Virus record (IMG/VR): IMGVR_UViG_649989946_000002
DNA length: 40,386 nucleotides
Source: a virus
Lineage: Duplodnaviria > Heunggongvirae > Uroviricota > Caudoviricetes
Strand: one strand, 5' to 3'
Position numbers and translations under genes: made by a program. Within the stretch, counting starts at the first letter, position 1; each line of letters starts with the position of its first letter. The notes below the pieces were generated by a model. It was not told the origin of the DNA, did not search any database, and saw only the letters and a program-made list of their open reading frames with translations. Positions 23,197-40,386 of this stretch are shown piece by piece.

Positions 23197-23401
23197 TCAT
23201 TTTCACTTTCTTAAATCTAACGACAGATGGCTAACATTTAAGTATTGTGAAATATTATCAAATGTAATCATCATTGATTTACAAAAGATACATTTTGCCC
23301 CGAAAGGATTTCTGTCAGAAACATCAAAAGATGATGTTCTATACTGAGAACCATGGCAACACGGGCATCTAAAGTGAATATGGTTTGTAATATTTTCTAC
23401 C

Positions 23402-23614
23402 TCAAAGTGCCACTACATGAACAGCTGCAGGGCCTTTAGGTCCGTTCTCAATACCAAATTCGACTTCCTGATTCTCAGTTAACGTTTTGAAATCGTTGCT
23501 CTGAATAGCTGAGAAATGCACAAACACATCTTTGCTACCATCTTTCGGCGTGATGAAACCAAAACCTTTTTCAGGGTTAAACCATTTCACTAAACCAGTC
23601 ATTTTGTTAGACAT
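23402..23614 (-). CDS. cspI: Cold-shock protein, CspI-like
   Basis: 70-aa [41 protein letters not shown]... with RNP1/RNP2 motifs. Confidence 0.9.
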
Positions 23615-23977
23615 TATTATTACCTTTTGAAGAAGTTAGCCCTTGGGCAGAATGGTCCGAAAAAAAATATCAGAGAGAAAAACCAACAAGGAAATCTCAA
23701 GAGGTACAAATAATAAAATTATAACAATGACTGCTTCAGATAATTTTGTAACAAACCAGAACACCATTAACGCATGATTAACCAACCATAGCAAGGATTA
23801 CTTTTGTAAAGAAAAACACACGAATGAAACAATAGCTTTATTTATTAATAAAACGTGTCATTCTGTCTAATGACCTTTTATCTTACCCTTAAGATTTCAA
23901 GGATTTTGACTCATGGAAGAGTCCTTTTTATTTAAATTTCACATTCAGCGCTAAAAATAATCCGATTTAATATTAAT

Positions 23978-26066: not shown

Positions 26067-26347
26067 GAGATTGTGGTGCTTTTTGTGGGAGTCATCCACT
26101 TACGCACTTTGTTTTGCCATGCCAGCAGTTAGCTTCTGCTGTAAAACTATTCATGCAGCAAACCTGCACTTCACCACAATGGTTAGCATACTTTTCCTGA
26201 TTAAGATTTTGCCAAATATGCTAGCCATTGTTTCATGTATTGGACCTCCTTACTTTTTATTAAAGAGATCCAATATTCACTACTCTGTCCGTATCTCTAC
26301 TCAGGCATCAGCCTTCTTCGTTATCGTATACAGACGAGCGATGAATT

Positions 26348-26563
26348 TTAATCAGTAATGATGACATTTGCTGCTGCAGGACCTTTAGCACCACTCTCTA
26401 TAGAGAAGGTAACCTTTTGACCTTCAAATAAGGTTCGATAATTATCATTCTGAATCGCAGAAAAATGCACAAACACATCTTTACTACCATCAACAGGAGA
26501 AATAAAGCCGAAACCTTTATCAGCGTTAAACCATTTTACTAAACCAGTCATTTTATTTGACAT
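26348..26563 (-). CDS. cspB: Cold-shock protein, CspB-like
   Basis: 71-aa [70 protein letters not shown]... Confidence 0.9.
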
Positions 26564-26862
26564 TCTACATTCCTTAACTTGAGCCTTTCGGCATAAATGG
26601 TTTGCATAACAGAAACGACTTCGTACTTAATTGGAGAGACTCAAAGAAGGAATAAGTGAATAACACCTGAAATGAGAACTGCTTTAGTAAACTACTTCGT
26701 ATATCGTCTGTTCTTCAAACCGACGCAATCATTAACGCATAGTTGAACATATGAAGCAATGTTTATTTTAGACATCCAGCCGTCTTCAACCCCATCAAAA
26801 AACTATAGCTTTCTTCAGGAACGTGTGTATAGTGCGCCAAGTTATCAGTATTAAGGAATTTT

Positions 26863-29097: not shown

Positions 29098-29348
29098 CCG
29101 TTCGTTACTAAAAACGGCAGCAATGTTTTGTCTTCCGCCAGCGGCTGGCGAACGGCAGGAACGACTCCGGATGGCAGATTACGCATGCTTTTTGGTTCCG
29201 GTTCCACCAGCACTCGAGGATTATGAAATATCTGTATGGATTCACGGCCCGGCTTAAGGACCACCAGCCCAAGCTCAGGCACCAGAACAGGTCTAAGTAA
29301 TACCCGCACGTTACCTCCAGATCCGTTGCTGGAAAGTGCGGGACGCAC
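29094..29348 (-). CDS. Hypothetical protein (84 aa), possibly the N-terminal part of the DUF968 gene
   Basis: ORF whose stop overlaps the DUF968 ATG; low-complexity sequence, weak support. Confidence 0.3.
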   Translation of the reverse strand: MRPALSSNGSGGNVRVLLRPVLVPELGLVVLKPGRESIQIFHNPRVLVEPEPKSMRNLPSGVVPAVRQPLAEDKTLLPFLVTNG

Positions 29349-30123: not shown

Positions 30124-30279
30124 TTACTCCTCAGGTTCGTAAGCTGTGAAGACAGCGACCTCCGTCTGGCCGGTTCGGATTCGTACCTCGCAGAGGTCTT
30201 TCCTCGTTACCAGTGCCGTCACTATGACGGTTAAACAGATGACGATCAGGGCGATTAACATCGCCTTTTGCTGCTTCAT
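30124..30279 (-). CDS. hokD: Hok-family membrane toxin HokD (RelF), 51 aa; absent from the ORF track
   Basis: Hand translation of the minus strand: MKQQKAMLIALIVICLTVIVTALVTRKDLCEVRIRTGQTEVAVFTAYEPEE*. Confidence 0.9.
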   Translation of the reverse strand: MKQQKAMLIALIVICLTVIVTALVTRKDLCEVRIRTGQTEVAVFTAYEPEE

Positions 30280-30350
30280 AGCCTGCTTCTCCTGTCAACG
30301 CAAAGCAGAAGTGTCACCTTCGGTGCGAAACAGAGATGTCATGCTTTGGT

Positions 30351-30638
30351 TCAGAGAATGCGTTTGACCGCCTCGCTATATACTTCCGAGCGTTCTCTTT
30401 TCCCAACAGAAATCACGAAAACGACAACTTTCTCGTCTATAACCTGGTATACAAGGCGATAGCCTGAAGACCGGAGCTTAATCTTGTAACAATCAGGCAT
30501 ACCACGGAGCTTGTTTGCTTCAATCCGGGGTGACTCAAGTACTTCAACCAGCTTCTTTTTCAACTGTTCACGTACCGTCGAGCCCAGCTTTCGCCATTCC
30601 TTTAGTGCCCGCTCGTCAAAATCCAGAAAATACGCCAT
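30351..30638 (-). CDS. relE: mRNA interferase toxin RelE
   Basis: 95-aa ORF MAYFLDFDERALKEWRKLGSTVREQLKKKLVEVLESPRIEANKLRGMPDCYKIKLRSSGYRLVYQVIDEKVVVFVISVGKRERSEVY... Confidence 0.95.
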   Translation of the reverse strand: MAYFLDFDERALKEWRKLGSTVREQLKKKLVEVLESPRIEANKLRGMPDCYKIKLRSSGYRLVYQVIDEKVVVFVISVGKRERSEVYSEAVKRIL

Positions 30639-30877
30639 CAGAGTTCATCCAGCGTCACACGTACTGGCTTAGGATTACGAAGCCGTTCTTTCACTATCTC
30701 CACAAGTTCAGCATCTTCATCACTCAGGAGTGTCTGTTTGAACGGCAAGCGTTCATTGTCAGCGATATACTCGAGCATGAGACGAAGCGCTTCAGAAGGA
30801 GTTACACCCATTTTTTCAAGCGCGGCGTAAGAACGCGCTTTAAGTTCATCGTCAATACGCAGGTTAATGCTACCCAT
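30638..30877 (-). CDS. relB: Antitoxin RelB
   Basis: 79-aa ORF MGSINLRIDDELKARSYAALEKMGVTPSEALRLMLEYIADNERLPFKQTLLSDEDAELVEIVKERL...; stop overlaps relE start. Confidence 0.95.
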   Translation of the reverse strand: MGSINLRIDDELKARSYAALEKMGVTPSEALRLMLEYIADNERLPFKQTLLSDEDAELVEIVKERLRNPKPVRVTLDEL

Positions 30878-30887
30878 GTCTTACACC

Positions 30888-35029: not shown

Positions 35030-35477
35030 TTGCTTTTTCTATAAGTTCGTCAGTTTCACGATCCACTACGGCAGGATCAGCAAAAAGCAGTCCGGACTCC
35101 ACCACATCGCCATATTCTTTGTTTAACCCGGCGATCATGCACGTGATGCTTTTTCCGTCAGTAATTTCACGATACAACCTGAAATCACTAATCCGGATAG
35201 CCTCCATAATCGCAGGCACTAGCGCCGTGAACTTTTCACGCTTATCCCTGGTATCGATAGCCTTCCAGCGTTCGAATATCTTCACTCGATTAACACCAAG
35301 CGCTCGCTGATCAACCGCGCCACCTTCATCTGTGACACGCTGAACATCGATGTTCGGGCGCTCTTTCAAAGCCCAGAATGCTTCAGTGATTAATATCGTC
35401 GCCTGCTCCTGTGTCATTCCTGGTCGACATATCCAGGCATCCAGAGCCTCACGAGCCTGTTCAGGAGTGATTTTCAT
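34956..35477 (-). CDS. Hypothetical early-region protein in the cII/YdaT position
   Basis: 173-aa ORF MKITPEQAREALDAWICRPGMTQEQATILITEAFWALKER... between dicC and the O-like gene. Confidence 0.5.
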   Translation of the reverse strand: MKITPEQAREALDAWICRPGMTQEQATILITEAFWALKERPNIDVQRVTDEGGAVDQRALGVNRVKIFERWKAIDTRDKREKFTALVPAIMEAIRISDFRLYREITDGKSITCMIAGLNKEYGDVVESGLLFADPAVVDRETDELIEKAIAFKLAYRQQYQQKAGWNYEPSFC

Positions 35478-35688
35478 TGTTCAACCGCCCCGCCCGCTTC
35501 GTCTTACGATATTCATCATAAACTTTGGGATCATACTGAAGCTCCCCGCCAGATGCCTCCTGTAGACGCATCGCGCGACCTTCAGGAACCAGTATCCCCC
35601 AAGCAGCAACACTTGCCAGCCTCACTCCTGCGGCATTGGCAAGCTTTGTTTTGCTGCCAAAAAAAGTAATTGCGTCAACTTTAAGCAT
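35461..35688 (-). CDS. dicC: Cro-like regulator DicC
   Basis: MLKVDAITFFGSKTKLANAAGVRLASVAAWGILVPEGRAMRLQEASGGELQYDPKVYDEYRKTKRAGRLNNENHS (75 aa), divergent from dicA. Confidence 0.85.
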   Translation of the reverse strand: MLKVDAITFFGSKTKLANAAGVRLASVAAWGILVPEGRAMRLQEASGGELQYDPKVYDEYRKTKRAGRLNNENHS

Positions 35689-35701
35689 CAAAGCCCCCCT
35701 C

Positions 35702-35720
35702 TTGTTAGATTTTTCTAACA
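35702..35720. promoter_or_regulatory. DicA/DicC operator palindrome in the dicC-dicA intergenic region
   Basis: TTGTTAGA-TTT-TCTAACA inverted repeat. Confidence 0.6.
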
Positions 35721-35769
35721 TTATTGTGCGCGGGATACCTAAGTCAAGAAAAATTAGAATTACCTAACT

Positions 35770-36177
35770 ATGGATACAAGAACCCTGGGCCAGCGAGTTC
35801 TGGCGCGACGAAAAGAATTACGCTTAACACAACGAGAAGCCGCGCGCCTCGCTGGAGTTGCTCACGTCACAATTTCACAATGGGAAAGAGACGAAACCCA
35901 GCCAGTCGGAAAACGATTGTTTGCTTTAGCGGATGCTCTGAAGTGCTCACCTACATGGCTAATGTTTGGTGACGAAGACAAGGCACCAGTGCCTGCACAA
36001 GAACTTCATGTGGAAACAGAGCTAACTCCCAACCACAAAGAATTGATCGAATTATTCGATGCTCTTCCATCTTCCGAGCAGGAAGCCTTGCTGTCTGAAA
36101 TGCGCGCAAGAGTAGAAAACTTCAACAAACTCTTCGAAGAAATGCTTAAAGCGCGTAAAAATAAATCAATAAAATAA
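35770..36177 (+). CDS. dicA: Repressor DicA (HTH_XRE, cI-like immunity repressor)
   Basis: 135-aa ORF MDTRTLGQRVLARRKELRLTQREAARLAGVAHVTISQWERDETQPVGKRLFALADAL... Confidence 0.95.
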   Translation: MDTRTLGQRVLARRKELRLTQREAARLAGVAHVTISQWERDETQPVGKRLFALADALKCSPTWLMFGDEDKAPVPAQELHVETELTPNHKELIELFDALPSSEQEALLSEMRARVENFNKLFEEMLKARKNKSIK

Positions 36178-37219: not shown

Positions 37220-37277
37220 TTTCTGGTGACGTTTGGCGGTATCAGTTTTACTCCGTGACTGCTCTGCCGCCCTTTTT
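37220..37277 (+). ncRNA. dicF: DicF small regulatory RNA (ftsZ/division-inhibiting sRNA) including its terminator hairpin
   Basis: TTTCTGGTGACGTTTGGCGGTATCAGTTTTACTCCGTGACTGCTCTGCCGCCCTTTTT matches the DicF sequence as recalled; between ydfC and dicB. Confidence 0.85.
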
Positions 37278-37446: not shown

Positions 37447-37635
37447 ATGAAAACGTTATTACCAAACGTTAATACGTCTGAAGGTTGTTTTGAAATTGGT
37501 GTCACTATCAGTAACCCAGTATTTACTGAAGATGCCATTAACAAGAGAAAACAAGAACGGGAGCTATTAAATAAAATATGCATTGTTTCAATGCTGGCTC
37601 GTTTACGTCTGATGCCAAAAGGATGTGCACAATGA
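37447..37635 (+). CDS. dicB: Cell-division inhibitor DicB
   Basis: MKTLLPNVNTSEGCFEIGVTISNPVFTEDAINKRKQERELLNKICIVSMLARLRLMPKGCAQ (62 aa). Confidence 0.9.
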   Translation: MKTLLPNVNTSEGCFEIGVTISNPVFTEDAINKRKQERELLNKICIVSMLARLRLMPKGCAQ

Positions 37636-37823
37636 ATTCAGCATTTGTGCTTGTTCTGACAGTTTTTCTTGTTTCCGGAGAGCCAGTTGATATTGCAGTC
37701 AGTGTTCACAGGACAATGCAGGAGTGTATGACTGCAGCAACCGAACAGAAAATTCCCGGTAACTGTTACCCGGTCGATAAAGTTATTCACCAGGATAATA
37801 TCGAAATCCCGGCAGGTCTTTAA
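37632..37823 (+). CDS. ydfD: YdfD-like small membrane protein
   Basis: MNSAFVLVLTVFLVSGEPVDIAVSVHRTMQECMTAATEQKIPGNCYPVDKVIHQDNIEIPAGL; ATGA overlap with the dicB stop. Confidence 0.8.
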   Translation: MNSAFVLVLTVFLVSGEPVDIAVSVHRTMQECMTAATEQKIPGNCYPVDKVIHQDNIEIPAGL

Positions 37824-37915
37824 AACAGTTCCGTAATAAATATCCGGTTTCATTCTTATATGCCAGCAATGGCAGGGATTTGTTCATCCTTAAATCTGTC
37901 ATGAGGTTAAAACAA

Positions 37916-38890
37916 ATGAGTAAAGTCTTTATTTGCGCCGCTATTCCTGACGAACTGGCAACAAGGGAAGAAGGCGCTGTGGCTGTAGCCACAGCCATTG
38001 AAGCTGGCGACGAACGCCGTGCTCGAGCAAAATTTCACTGGCAATTCCTGGAACATTATCCGGCTGCTCAGGACTGCGCTTATAAATTTATTGTCTGCGA
38101 GGATAAACCTGGCATACCCCGCCCTGCCCTCGATTCATGGGATGCTGAATATATGCAGGAAAACCGCTGGGATGAGGAGTCTGCTTCTTTTGTCCCGGTT
38201 GAGACTGAATCCGATCCGATGAACGTCACTTTTGACAAGCTGGCCCCTGAAGTACAGAACGCTGTCATGGTTAAGTTCGACACATGTGAAAACATCACCG
38301 TTGATATGGTTATTAGCGCACAGGAATTGTTGCAGGAAGACATGGCAACATTCGACGGACATATCGTTGAAGCGTTGATGAAAATGCCAGAAGTTAACGC
38401 CATGTATCCGGAGCTTAAGTTGCACGCCATTGGGTGGGTTAAGCATAAATGTATTCCTGGTGCTAAATGGCCCGAAATTCAGGCAGAGATGCGCATCTGG
38501 AAAAAACGTCGCGAAGGTGAACGCAAGGAAACCGGAAAATACACGTCTGTTGTTGATCTCGCCCGCGCCAGAGCCAATCAACAGTACACTGAAAATTCAA
38601 CAGGAAAAATCAGCCCGGTCATTGCTGCCATTCATCGCGAATACAAGCAGACATGGAAAACACTGGATGACGAACTGGCCTACGCTCTCTGGCCTAGTGA
38701 TGTGGATGCCGGAAACATTGACGGCAGCATCCATCGCTGGGCAAAAAAGAAGTTATCGACAACGACCGCGAAGACTGGAAGCGTATCTCGGCATCAATGC
38801 GCAAACAGCCTGATGCCCTTCGCTACGACCGCCAAACTATTTTTGGCCTTGTCCGTGAGCGTCCGATCGACATTCACAAAGATCCCGTAG
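37916..38890 (+). CDS. YdfE-like protein, N-terminal part of a large leftward-operon protein (frame break at 38743-38748)
   Basis: MSKVFICAAIPDELATREEGAVAVATAIEAGDERRARAKF...; GAGG RBS; sequence after ...SIHRWAKK looks out of frame. Confidence 0.6.
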   Translation: MSKVFICAAIPDELATREEGAVAVATAIEAGDERRARAKFHWQFLEHYPAAQDCAYKFIVCEDKPGIPRPALDSWDAEYMQENRWDEESASFVPVETESDPMNVTFDKLAPEVQNAVMVKFDTCENITVDMVISAQELLQEDMATFDGHIVEALMKMPEVNAMYPELKLHAIGWVKHKCIPGAKWPEIQAEMRIWKKRREGERKETGKYTSVVDLARARANQQYTENSTGKISPVIAAIHREYKQTWKTLDDELAYALWPSDVDAGNIDGSIHRWAKKKLSTTTAKTGSVSRHQCANSLMPFATTAKLFLALSVSVRSTFTKIP

Positions 38891-40386
38891 CACTGAACAA
38901 ATATATCTGCGAATACCTGACGACAAAGGGCGTGTTTGAGAATGAAGAAACAGACCTGGGCACTGTTGATGTTCTCCAGTCATCAGAAACACAAACTGAT
39001 GCAGTGGAAACTGAGGTATCTGATATCCCAAAAAATGAAACCGCGCCGGAAGCTGAACCATCTGTAGAGCGTGAGGGGCCGTTCTATTTCCTCTTCGCAG
39101 ATAAGGACGGAGAAAAATACGGTCGCGCAAACAAACTCTCTGGTCTGGATAAGGCACTGGCTGCTGGCGCCACTGAAATCACAAAAGAAGAATATTTTGC
39201 CCGAAAAAATGGCACATACACGGGCTTACCGCAAAATGTAGATACCGCTGAAGATTCAGAACAACCAGAGCCGATAAAAGTTACCGCTGACGAAGTAAAC
39301 AAAATTATGCAGGCAGCCAATATCAGCCAGCCTGACGCCGATAAGTTGCTTGCTGCATCACGTGGTGAATTTGTTGAAGGGATTAGTGACCCGAATGATC
39401 CGAAATGGGTTAAGGGGCTCCAGACCCGCGATTCTGTGAACCAGAACCAGCATGAATCGGAACGGAACTACCAAAAAGCGGAACAAAACAGTCCAAATGC
39501 GTTACAAAACGAGCCAGAAACGAAACAGCCTGAACCAGTAGCGCAACAGGAAGTGGAAAAAGTCTGCACCGCCTGCGGTCAGACCGGCGGCGGCAACTGC
39601 CCTGATTGTGGCGCGGTGATGGGCGACGCAACATACCAAGAAACATTCGATGAAGAGTATCAGGTTGAAGTTCAGGAAGATGATCCGGAGGAAATGGAAG
39701 GCGCTGAACATCCACACAAGGAGAACACTGGCGGCAATCAGCATCACAATAGCGATAATGAAACTGGCGAGACGGCAGATCACCCAATTAAGGTGAACGG
39801 TCATCACGAAATCACATCCACCAGCAGGACGTGTGACCATCTAATGATCGACCTTGAAACCATGGGAAAAAATCCTGATGCCCCGATCATCTCAATAGGT
39901 GCAATATTTTTCGATCCGCAAACCGGAGATATGGGACCGGAATTTAGTAAGACTATCGATCTGGAAACTGCTGGCGGAGTCATTGATCGGGACACCATTA
40001 AATGGTGGCTTAAGCAATCACGCGAAGCGCAATCTGCCATTATGACCGATGAAATCCCGTTAGATGATGCACTGTTACAATTGCGAGAATTTATCGACGA
40101 AAACTCCGGTGAATTTTTTGTTCAGGTTTGGGGAAATGGAGCCAACTTCGACAACACGATTTTGCGCCGTTCATACGAACGGCAGGGGATCCCCTGCCCG
40201 TGGCGTTACTACAACGATCGCGATGTACGCACAATCGTTGAGCTGGGGAAAGCCATAGACTTCGATGCCAGAACGGCTATTCCATTCGAAGGTGAGCGCC
40301 ATAATGCACTTGATGACGCCCGTTACCAGGCAAAATACGTTTCAGTTATCTGGCAAAAACTGATCCCGAGTCAGGCTGATTCTTAA
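38797..40386 (+). CDS. C-terminal part of the same protein, carrying a DnaQ-like DEDDh 3'-5' exonuclease domain
   Basis: Motifs LMIDLETMG (Exo I), VWGNGANFD (Exo II), HNALDDARYQAKY (Exo III); frame open upstream of the Met back through the A-run at 38743-38748. Confidence 0.7.
   Translation: MRKQPDALRYDRQTIFGLVRERPIDIHKDPVALNKYICEYLTTKGVFENEETDLGTVDVLQSSETQTDAVETEVSDIPKNETAPEAEPSVEREGPFYFLFADKDGEKYGRANKLSGLDKALAAGATEITKEEYFARKNGTYTGLPQNVDTAEDSEQPEPIKVTADEVNKIMQAANISQPDADKLLAASRGEFVEGISDPNDPKWVKGLQTRDSVNQNQHESERNYQKAEQNSPNALQNEPETKQPEPVAQQEVEKVCTACGQTGGGNCPDCGAVMGDATYQETFDEEYQVEVQEDDPEEMEGAEHPHKENTGGNQHHNSDNETGETADHPIKVNGHHEITSTSRTCDHLMIDLETMGKNPDAPIISIGAIFFDPQTGDMGPEFSKTIDLETAGGVIDRDTIKWWLKQSREAQSAIMTDEIPLDDALLQLREFIDENSGEFFVQVWGNGANFDNTILRRSYERQGIPCPWRYYNDRDVRTIVELGKAIDFDARTAIPFEGERHNALDDARYQAKYVSVIWQKLIPSQADS

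Follow-up and report, generated by a model that had tools for sequence, protein, structure and literature searches.

A predicted DEDDh exonuclease domain joined to a RecE-like scaffold in the last early-operon gene of a Qin-like prophage

Introduction

The RecE protein (exodeoxyribonuclease VIII) encoded by the Rac prophage has a 5'-3' PD-(D/E)XK nuclease at its C-terminal end, and recT lies next after its gene; full-length RecE has been widely reported as being needed for linear-linear recombineering. Exonucleases of the DEDDh type include T4 DexA (exonuclease A; PDB 8kel/8ken), a stand-alone protein of 227 aa from a lytic phage, with extra loops and without a RecE-like N-terminal extension, and its E. 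coli homologue EcD ('HREX'), which reportedly cuts DNA containing 5-hydroxymethylcytosine (5hmC) and protects against T4 (PMC12153337, 2025); both are reported to be 3'-5' DNases (PMC12153337). A further member, Rv2179c of Mycobacterium tuberculosis (PDB 4hec), is a chromosomal exoribonuclease with a 155-residue chain, and differs in its setting from the prophage gene described here. The closest counterpart of that gene encodes WP_000048342.1 (PHROG 2082) of Qin-like E. coli prophages, and lies after dicB-ydfD and before xis-int, the same place in the operon.

We have analysed a 40,386 bp stretch of viral DNA (IMG/VR record IMGVR_UViG_649989946_000002), referred to below as the window, near the end of which the original prediction placed a DnaQ-like DEDDh exonuclease domain. 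We consider it highly probable that this is the catalytic C-terminal domain of a prophage exonuclease built on a RecE-type scaffold, encoded by the last gene of a leftward operon and split in the window by loss of a single A.

Results and Discussion

A predicted DEDDh exonuclease domain

The domain and its catalytic motifs are positioned as follows:

39838..40353, + strand: predicted DEDDh 3'-5' exonuclease domain of the Rv2179c/DexA-like family (PF16473), ORF residues 348-519
39850..39858, + strand: Exo I motif, D-L-E in MIDLETMG (IDLET at nt 39847-39861), catalytic Asp and Glu
40150..40152, + strand: Exo II catalytic Asp in GANFDN
40300..40317, + strand: Exo III motif HNALDD, general-base His with an Asp five residues on (H-x4-D, the 'h' subtype)

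The match to Pfam family PF16473 (Rv2179c-like 3'-5' exoribonuclease domain) is far beyond chance (E=1.3e-67, 227.3 bits, model positions 2-177 of 177) and far above the gathering threshold of 27 bits, whereas the generic RNase_T family PF00929 scores 22.4 bits, below its own threshold of 24. We interpret the likeness to PF00929 as lying at the superfamily level only, with PF16473 as the specific family. Structure prediction, proposed along with profile searches as a check on the domain, agrees with this, in that an AlphaFold model built for the C-terminal 195 residues (pLDDT 85, pTM 0.82) has the RNase H-like alpha/beta fold of the DEDDh superfamily, and its best matches among solved structures are T4 DexA, a DnaQ domain, RNase T, Orn, and REXO2. 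A phmmer search of PDB sequences recovers DexA at E=6e-8, and gives no match between Rv2179c and the window protein at E<=1. The location given originally (39800-40386) does contain the domain, but the reading frame begins at 39799 or 39802; a translation from 39800 contains seven stop codons.

The three motifs described in the original prediction (DxE, D, and H-x4-D) can be read directly from the sequence and are conserved in an alignment of 27 homologous sequences. The Exo I aspartate D18 (nt 39850-52) is invariant and the glutamate E20 (nt 39856-58) is conserved in 90% or more of the sequences, and these align to DexA D7 and E9; the Exo II aspartate D118 is invariant and aligns to DexA D119; and in Exo III both H168 (nt 40300-02) and D173 (nt 40315-17) are invariant, aligning to DexA H186 and D191. 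All five catalytic residues are present, and we assign the domain, as predicted from its sequence, to the DEDDh (DnaQ-like, RNase H-fold) exonucleases of the Rv2179c/DexA family. By analogy with the solved DEDDh enzymes, the D, E, D, and D carboxylates are predicted to hold two Mg2+ ions, which together with the histidine as general base would remove nucleotides singly from a free 3'-OH end.

The exonuclease gene is interrupted in the window

The domain was originally described within an ORF of 529 codons, which is the 3' part of a prophage gene of 823 codons rather than a whole gene. Its parts are as follows:

37916-40386, + strand: whole exonuclease gene, 823 codons in intact relatives
37916..38749, + strand: 5' segment, codons 1-278 (MSKVFICAAIPDE...HRWAKK)
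38743..38748, + strand: A6 run, A7 in intact relatives, the 1 nt deletion that splits the gene
38750..38890, + strand: out-of-frame tail (KLSTTTAKTG...FTKIP*) of the upstream ORF 37880..38890, as seen by comparison with the intact protein
38797..40386, + strand: 529-aa ORF, running from a Met codon inside the gene to the TAA stop codon that ends the window

The upstream and downstream ORFs take positions 1-279 and 295-822, respectively, of the 823 positions in PHROG 2082, and the tail at 38750..38890, which carries no conserved protein sequence, is a product of the frameshift. When one A is added to the run the translation is 100% identical to WP_000048342.1, annotated as 'exonuclease', the gene for which has an A7 run where the window copy has A6 and reads as two ORFs; the start codon of the 5' segment agrees with that of WP_000048342.1 in a related locus, L001. 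Only 141 homologues of the N-terminal region were found, every one of them in Escherichia or Shigella, and we regard this region as restricted to Escherichia on current sequences and as corresponding to the K-12 pseudogene ydfE. K-12 ydfE is an IS2-truncated form of the same gene, cut by IS2E, and the window gene is the full-length form of ydfE, albeit split by the frameshift.

This is a very common E. coli prophage gene, already annotated as an exonuclease in thousands of genomes, and some 3485 of the 5426 complete E. coli genomes carry a copy that spans 80% or more of the query. A comparison of three intact relatives gives dN/dS values of 0.08-0.39 across all three parts of the gene, as expected of purifying selection. 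Searches of the literature (for Rv2179c, for ydfE/Qin, and for RecE with DEDDh in prophages) found no experimental work on the protein, which PGAP names '3'-5' exoribonuclease domain-containing protein'.

Over 2788 nt, nothing but the gap in the A run distinguishes the window from E. coli cq9 and many other genomes. A 67 nt query around the run is matched at >=99% identity, a level that requires A6, by 14 of 3570 records, while 3554 of the 3570 differ from the query, consistent with A7; in strain AR_452, PGAP labels the A6 copy 'frameshifted'. Five homopolymer indels separate the window from its nearest relative, and in each it is the window that is shorter, in a run of A or T; besides the run in the exonuclease gene, the runs concerned are at 29110, 31366, 31687, and 31693. 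The frameshift may therefore be a homopolymer sequencing error, in which case the gene is intact, or else a very recent inactivating mutation; as 14 complete genomes share the A6 allele, it could be real.

A further result of the deletion is a heptamer, A_AAA_AAG (38743-38749), that is in phase with the upstream ORF (gcA_AAA_AAG) and has the sequence of the E. coli dnaX slippery site. Programmed -1 ribosomal frameshifting on this heptamer could in principle decode the A6 allele to yield the full-length exonuclease as well as a truncated N-terminal protein, and a -1 slip on the 0-frame codons GCA AAA AAG restores exactly the intact ...WAKKEVID... sequence. We regard this as extremely unlikely and have set it aside, given the rarity of A6 and the folding of the downstream RNA, which does not stand out from that of shuffled controls (z=-1.08); moreover, the stretch 10-14 nt before the heptamer has no SD-like stimulator, the heptamer is just what remains of an A7 run after loss of one A, and error or decay is suggested by the four further homopolymer deletions in the window.

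Nor does the 529-aa ORF appear to be an independent gene, composed of the RecE-like linker described below and the DEDDh domain and translated from its own ATG. The ATG at 38797 does open 529 codons, and PHROG 20376 (530 positions) matches the product end to end, such pieces sometimes being called as proteins. However, the members of PHROG 20376 are probably calls of this same frameshifted or partial kind, the ATG is an internal Met codon of the 823-aa protein in about 3500 genomes, and the upstream ORF carries the same protein onward as far as the A run. The 15 nt before the ATG (tatctcggcatcaATG) contain no Shine-Dalgarno-like sequence, and for this reason we have set aside independent translation as very unlikely. 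On the preferred reading of a single interrupted gene, the 529-aa ORF should not be annotated as a separate gene.

A RecE-like middle region precedes the nuclease

The middle part of the protein, encoded immediately upstream of the DEDDh domain, includes these features:

38699..39795, + strand: RecE-homologous central region, full-length residues 262-627 against RecE 278-592
39565..39609, + strand: four-Cys motif C-x2-C-x7-C-x2-C (CTACGQTGGGNCPDCG), read from the sequence

A BLASTP comparison with K-12 RecE gives 39% identity (E=2e-61), rising to near identity over residues 465-625, and the homology stops at RecE residue 592, where the RecE nuclease begins. The DEDDh domain thus replaces RecE's own nuclease. 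The NCBIfam RecE-type model NF007259 behaves similarly, in that it scores 256.6 bits against a cut-off of 1269 and is matched only at positions 324-600 of 877, short of a full-length match that would include the C-terminal PD-(D/E)XK nuclease. The name 'exodeoxyribonuclease VIII' is misleading for this protein. Other long forms match NF007259 positions 1-603 and then continue into a DEDDh domain.

The central region is acidic and mostly predicted to be disordered, although the pLDDT profile for the full-length model shows one small folded element, residues 388-432. Aligned with the four-Cys motif, RecE has CNACGQTGGDNCPDCG, and we suggest that this is a putative zinc ribbon common to both proteins. 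The protein as a whole is in three parts, namely an Escherichia-specific N-terminal region, a largely disordered acidic RecE-like middle, and the DEDDh domain. The original prediction had noted a nuclease of a different fold from those of lambda Exo or RecE, and the nuclease domain is indeed distinct from that of RecE; the protein is not unrelated to RecE, however, as its residues 262-627, including the four-Cys motif, are homologous to RecE 278-592. It is thus a RecE-type scaffold bearing a nuclease of opposite polarity, predicted to be 3'-5' rather than the 5'-3' of the RecE PD-(D/E)XK domain.

When genome contigs were scanned with a protein joining a complete RecE N-terminus to a DEDDh domain, only YdfE-type relatives were recovered, matching from residue ~245, and phage records contain 813-aa variants in the same dicB-ydfD-exonuclease-int slot. 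The joining of a RecE-like region to a DEDDh nuclease is directly observed. A possible though doubtful extension of it is that the ~600-residue non-catalytic RecE region is a portable targeting or assembly module that has been joined to nucleases of opposite polarity, with the DEDDh chimeras forming an uncharacterised class of annealase-independent, early-lytic DNA-end nucleases; the functional side of this idea is speculation. If it is correct, the chimeras might degrade the DNA ends of competitors or of the host, or counter host defence. That the long and poorly understood N-terminal part of RecE is common to a nuclease of opposite polarity may also help to explain that part.

The gene lies at the end of a DicA-type operon

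The window is a Qin-like lambdoid prophage, as judged from the following genes around its early region:

35461..35721, - strand: Cro-like partner of the dicC type, divergent from the DicA-type gene, with relatives annotated dicC or Cro
35770..36177, + strand: DicA-type (cI-like) repressor gene heading the leftward side, an ORF with relatives annotated dicA or cI
37221..37272, + strand: DicF small RNA, upstream of dicB in the same operon (Rfam RF00039, 76.7 bits, E=2.3e-15)
37447-37635, + strand: dicB, an ORF with DNA 100% identical to L001, where it is annotated
37632-37823, + strand: ydfD, an ORF with DNA 100% identical to L001, lying with dicB directly upstream of the exonuclease gene

The exonuclease gene is the last in a DicA-repressed leftward operon containing ydfABC, DicF, dicB, ydfD, and the exonuclease gene, DicA presumably acting as the repressor in lysogens. 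In every relative inspected the exonuclease gene lies directly before xis-int, and the distal position in a repressor-controlled early operon that was first proposed for it is borne out. The gene would be expressed only upon derepression or induction.

Recombination provides one possible role for a nuclease at this location, and the original prediction spoke of a recombination or anti-host position. The place in the operon was correctly identified and is equivalent to that of recE in Rac, a related defective lambdoid prophage; the notion of a recombination module is weakened, as the relatives show no RecT or Bet partner beside it. The protein could nonetheless be a functional counterpart of RecE or lambda Exo in resection, paired with an annealase whose gene lies at another locus, and sharing both the RecE position in a Rac/Qin-type early operon and the non-catalytic region of RecE would be in keeping with this, as would the situation in Vibrio phage H188, where a stand-alone homologue lies among genes for a RecA-like NTPase, a Cas4-domain exonuclease, and a helicase. 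In Rac, recT comes directly after recE, whereas no recT, bet, or erf gene is annotated beside the exonuclease gene in any enterobacterial relative examined, as judged from the annotation of neighbouring genes in the relatives, the window itself ending at the stop codon; the relatives have xis-int in that place. Degradation with 3'-5' polarity also leaves 5' overhangs, which are the wrong product for RecT/Bet-type annealing. We therefore regard a role in resection as quite improbable, and suggest instead that the protein would work on its own, trimming or degrading DNA ends in the metabolism of phage DNA or in competition between phages, and not as the resection half of an exonuclease/annealase recombinase.

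Substrate and possible role in defence

The naming of the family bears on whether the substrate is DNA or RNA. Pfam and PGAP name it after Rv2179c, described as a 3'-5' exoribonuclease, and RNase T, Orn, and REXO2 are among the structural neighbours, such that the protein could be an exoribonuclease acting on host or phage RNA during lytic growth. However, RNase T and related enzymes cut DNA too, the domain is fused to the scaffold of the DNA exonuclease RecE, and the nearest relatives to have been solved and tested are the DNases DexA and EcD. Largely because of these last two relatives we lean towards the 3' ends of DNA as the probable substrate, and consider a dedicated role in RNA degradation to be conceivable but not favoured.

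The similarity to EcD raises the question of whether the DEDDh domain degrades the 5hmC-containing DNA of superinfecting T-even phages. We inferred the sequence of EcD from the primers reported in PMC12153337, which lead to a protein of 189 aa encoded by P2-like prophages; the match to the forward primer is exact, that to the reverse primer is off by one A, and the presence of A78 fits. The 23-mer sequence of the reverse primer has no match in IMG/VR or in E. coli genomes, and a 20-mer from it has one match, at an unrelated locus, such that the EcD-like gene was found with the forward primer instead. The EcD-like protein belongs to PF16473 (E=1.6e-48) and shares 37% identity over 182 aa with the window domain, and both are encoded in prophage early regions; it differs in being stand-alone and in residing in another type of prophage, beside genes for a replication gene A protein and Dam.

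In a three-way alignment with DexA and the EcD-like protein the catalytic DEDDh residues are conserved. At the positions proposed to recognise 5hmC (PMC12153337), DexA W152 (a Trp in EcD) is replaced by Tyr in the window protein and D169 (a Glu in EcD) by Lys, so that the Trp/acidic pair is not retained, although these positions are in loops where the MAFFT alignment is uncertain. The tetramer-forming residue D90 of DexA is still an Asp in the window protein (in PLDDAL), whereas the EcD-like protein has Ala78 and has lost it. The presumed repression of the operon by DicA in lysogens would also be at odds with a defence function, and PADLOC places the protein in no known defence system, its sole match being a generic Cas-associated DEDDh model. 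Thus, while the shared family, the common early-region location, and the activity and anti-T4 protection reported for EcD (PMC12153337) all favour a defence nuclease of this type, we think it rather unlikely for the window protein. Modification-dependent DNA degradation has been reported for DexA and EcD, as has protection against T4 (PMC12153337), and this opens the function of the widespread prophage form to direct experimental tests.

Stand-alone Rv2179c-like exonucleases of ~180-190 aa are also present in prophages of Salmonella, Citrobacter, Klebsiella, and Enterobacter, with 57-87% identity to the domain; these lack the N-terminal 630 residues, and their genes occupy the same slot directly upstream of xis-int.

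The terminal DEDDh domain

The window closes with an ORF for which the original prediction was a DnaQ-like DEDDh exonuclease domain at 39800-40386, and a strong Pfam match lies at that place.

38797..40386, plus strand: last ORF of the window, 529 aa, its TAA forming the last three bases of the window
39838-40353, plus strand: PF16473 domain (Pfam), ORF residues 348-519

The match is to PF16473, the 'Rv2179c-like 3'-5' exoribonuclease domain' (E=1.3e-67; 227 bits, with a cut-off of 27 bits), while the generic RNase_T profile scores 22.4 bits, slightly below its threshold of 24. The motifs that had been noted are all real (Exo I 'MIDLETMG', Exo II 'GANFDN' and Exo III 'HNALDD'). An alignment of 27 homologues of 57–87% identity shows no variation at the catalytic Asp, His and Asp, and at least 90% of the sequences retain the Exo I Glu. 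AlphaFold models the last 195 residues with confidence (pLDDT 85, pTM 0.82), and the solved structures that this model most resembles by Foldseek are those of T4 exonuclease A, DexA (8kel/8ken; E=6e-11, TM 0.71–0.73), followed by a DnaQ domain, RNase T, oligoribonuclease and REXO2. The profile match, the motifs and the structural comparison together confirm the domain where it was predicted, the sole coordinate correction being that its reading frame begins at 39799 rather than 39800.

An 823-codon gene split in the window

PHROG 2082 ('exonuclease', 823 positions) spans two ORFs, its positions 1–279 matching the upstream ORF (37880..38890) and 295–822 the 529-aa ORF. By megablast, the region 37600-40386 is found in 4800 of 5426 complete E. 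coli genomes, with 80% or more of the query covered at one place in 3485 of them; the best matches are reported as '100% identical', yet are longer by one base. Direct comparison with E. coli cq9 reveals a single difference, a run of six A residues (A6) at 38743-38748 where cq9 has seven. Once the missing A is put back, the translation is an 823-aa protein identical to WP_000048342.1. Real or not, the frameshift leaves the 823-codon gene as the biological unit.

The A6 allele is rare: a 67-nt query around the run is matched at an identity of 99% or more, which requires A6, in just 14 of 3570 genome records. Relative to E. coli MEI005, to which the last 12.4 kb of the window are most closely related (99.2% identity), there are five single-base indels away from the alignment ends, all of them deletions in the window and in runs of A or T (at 29110, 31366, 31687, 31693 and 38743); their effects are to break ydfU, change how flxA ends and divide the exonuclease gene in two. 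Deletions on one side only, all within homopolymers, are as expected from under-calling by the sequencer, and the split may be a sequencing artefact, although a decaying cryptic prophage would show much the same picture. The deletion also creates an in-phase A_AAA_AAG heptamer at 38743-38749, the slippery sequence of dnaX, and slippage by -1 there would bring back exactly the intact sequence; programmed frameshifting in the A6 allele is nevertheless very improbable, given the scarcity of the allele, a downstream RNA fold no stronger than in shuffled controls (z=-1.08), and the absence of an SD-like element upstream of the heptamer, no stimulatory elements being found. An independent start at ATG 38797 was also considered and rejected as unlikely, there being no ribosome-binding site.

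Other copies are interrupted as well. The K-12 copy is the pseudogene ydfE, cut short by IS2E; those of AR_452 and PPompW_EH1846 are annotated as 'frameshifted' and 'frameshifted by deletion' respectively; and that of vB_EcoM-606R7 is split into two CDSs. The gene is thus recurrently disrupted in various ways (IS2, frameshifts, split), despite low dN/dS among the three intact copies compared.

A nuclease exchanged on a RecE-type scaffold

Residues 262–627 of the intact protein align with residues 278–592 of RecE, exodeoxyribonuclease VIII of the Rac prophage, at 39% identity (E=2e-61), and identity is nearly complete over residues 465–625, which include a C-x2-C-x7-C-x2-C motif.

39565-39609: four-cysteine motif CTACGQTGGGNCPDCG, near-identical to the RecE motif CNACGQTGGDNCPDCG

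The motif, which may be a zinc ribbon, lies within an otherwise acidic, predicted disordered region. The NCBIfam exodeoxyribonuclease VIII model is matched only at positions 324–600 of 877 (257 bits; cut-off 1269 bits). Homology to RecE ends at its residue 592, close to the start of the PD-(D/E)XK nuclease domain in the published RecE structure. The DEDDh domain stands approximately where RecE has this nuclease, in agreement with the original prediction of a nuclease distinct from that of RecE. The gene product is a DEDDh 3'-5' exonuclease on a RecE-type scaffold; its substrate and biological role we infer.

An exhaustive HMMER search for the DEDDh domain found 12,150 cluster representatives at E<=0.001, among them several long forms of 555–901 aa in which the part N-terminal of the domain aligns with differing stretches of the RecE model between positions 1 and about 600; one of these, P0361, matches positions 3–603 in a single stretch. 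Both types of nuclease are therefore found in combination with the non-catalytic region of RecE. Homologues of the first 275 residues of the window protein number just 141 and come without exception from Escherichia or Shigella. The full-length AlphaFold model (pLDDT 53) has just three folded parts, the remainder being predicted to be disordered; no solved structure resembling either of the first two was found.

Residues 101–210: helical
Residues 388–432: small hairpin and helix
C-terminal: DEDDh domain

Comparison with phages mEp460 and Evi gives dN/dS of 0.08–0.13 for the N-terminal part, 0.33–0.39 for the middle part and 0.16–0.20 for the DEDDh domain, so that all three are under purifying selection. 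In the Evi gene (L043 1586-4066, aligned with window 37916-40386), dS is about 1.1 in the DEDDh module and 0.19–0.31 in the N-terminal and middle parts, a disparity indicating that this gene is a mosaic in which recombination within the gene has swapped the nuclease module.

The observation and its interpretation both hold, and they concern the catalytic end of a widespread prophage gene whose product is already known and annotated, and hence little new. Its PGAP name is 'exonuclease' or '3'-5' exoribonuclease domain-containing protein', and the 'exodeoxyribonuclease VIII' of several phage records is a mislabel. Its interest lies in the nuclease swap on the RecE scaffold, and in its being a common gene yet without experimental characterisation in the literature found.

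Prophage context and the lack of an adjacent annealase gene

As a Qin-like lambdoid prophage, the window has the following features.

35770-36177: DicA-type repressor
Minus strand: Cro-like gene, divergent
Minus strand: YdaT/cII-like gene
Minus strand: O-like gene
Plus strand, in order: ydfA, ydfB, ydfC, DicF sRNA, dicB, ydfD, exonuclease gene
37221-37272, plus strand: DicF antisense sRNA (Rfam RF00039, 76.7 bits, E=2e-15)
23356-23761 and 26332-26724, minus strand: cspA-type thermoregulator 5' leaders (Rfam RF01766, 110.6 and 158.8 bits)

The location of DicF between ydfC and dicB confirms a dicBF-type operon. In relatives with identical DNA the exonuclease gene is followed by xis, int and then chromosomal rspB, and this order, from the DicA side through the exonuclease gene to xis-int, justifies its description as the distal end of the pL-type operon. 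The window itself ends with the TAA stop of the gene (40384-40386), and xis and int, next in every close relative, lie outside it. The two cspA-type leaders imply two cold-shock-protein genes, such as Qin carries in K-12; the Qin toxin-antitoxin genes hokD and relBE are apparently at ~30125-30878, by a 99.7% alignment to an annotated locus (L044 2326-3079).

Stand-alone versions of the domain, about 180–190 aa, lie directly before xis-int in Salmonella prophages, Salmonella phage 118970_sal3 and Citrobacter phage phiNP, and fused versions share this slot in mEp460, 689R5 and 606R7. At none of these loci is recT, bet or erf annotated next to the exonuclease gene, a departure from Rac, where recE is followed by recT. 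A 3'-5' nuclease would leave 5' overhangs, the wrong product for annealase-based recombination, and with no adjacent annealase gene annotated at these loci a canonical two-component recombinase is quite unlikely.

The family is found in 642 of 50,697 phage records. In Vibrio phage H188 (L040 3995-4537) a stand-alone homologue lies between a RecA-like NTPase and a Cas4-domain exonuclease and helicase; the family may be part of a replication and recombination module in some lytic phages, and roles may thus differ across it.

Comparison with DexA and EcD

The paper that solved the structure of T4 DexA (2025, PMC12153337) reports that DexA degrades both host DNA and 5hmC phage DNA, whereas its E. 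coli homologue EcD acts on 5hmC DNA alone and gives protection against T4, which the authors name 'HREX'. It also reports that 5hmC is read by W152 and D169 of DexA, that D90 is what drives the formation of tetramers, and that EcD has Ala at position 78. Using the primers in the supplement of that paper, we searched IMG/VR contigs for EcD and recovered a 189-aa protein ('MIDTETLGNG...TTPFLNI') whose Ala at position 78 fits the description. It is probably EcD, though not certainly, because the printed reverse primer has one A more than the recovered sequence.

The window domain is 37% identical to this protein and 28% to DexA, and it has Tyr, Lys and Asp at the positions aligned with W152, D169 and D90, a combination that departs from the published HREX signature as far as the uncertain loop alignment allows. 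PADLOC reports only a generic DEDDh match. We consider an HREX-like defence role unlikely, and RNA a rather unlikely substrate.

L035 6404-6970, minus strand: EcD-like gene, also present in L014, L019, L029, L030 and L032 (all IMG/VR viral contigs)

The EcD-like protein is itself a member of PF16473, and in L035 its gene lies in a P2-like prophage early region, adjoining those for the replication gene A protein and Dam. Though described as a 'bacterial' defence exonuclease, it appears to be the product of a prophage early gene.
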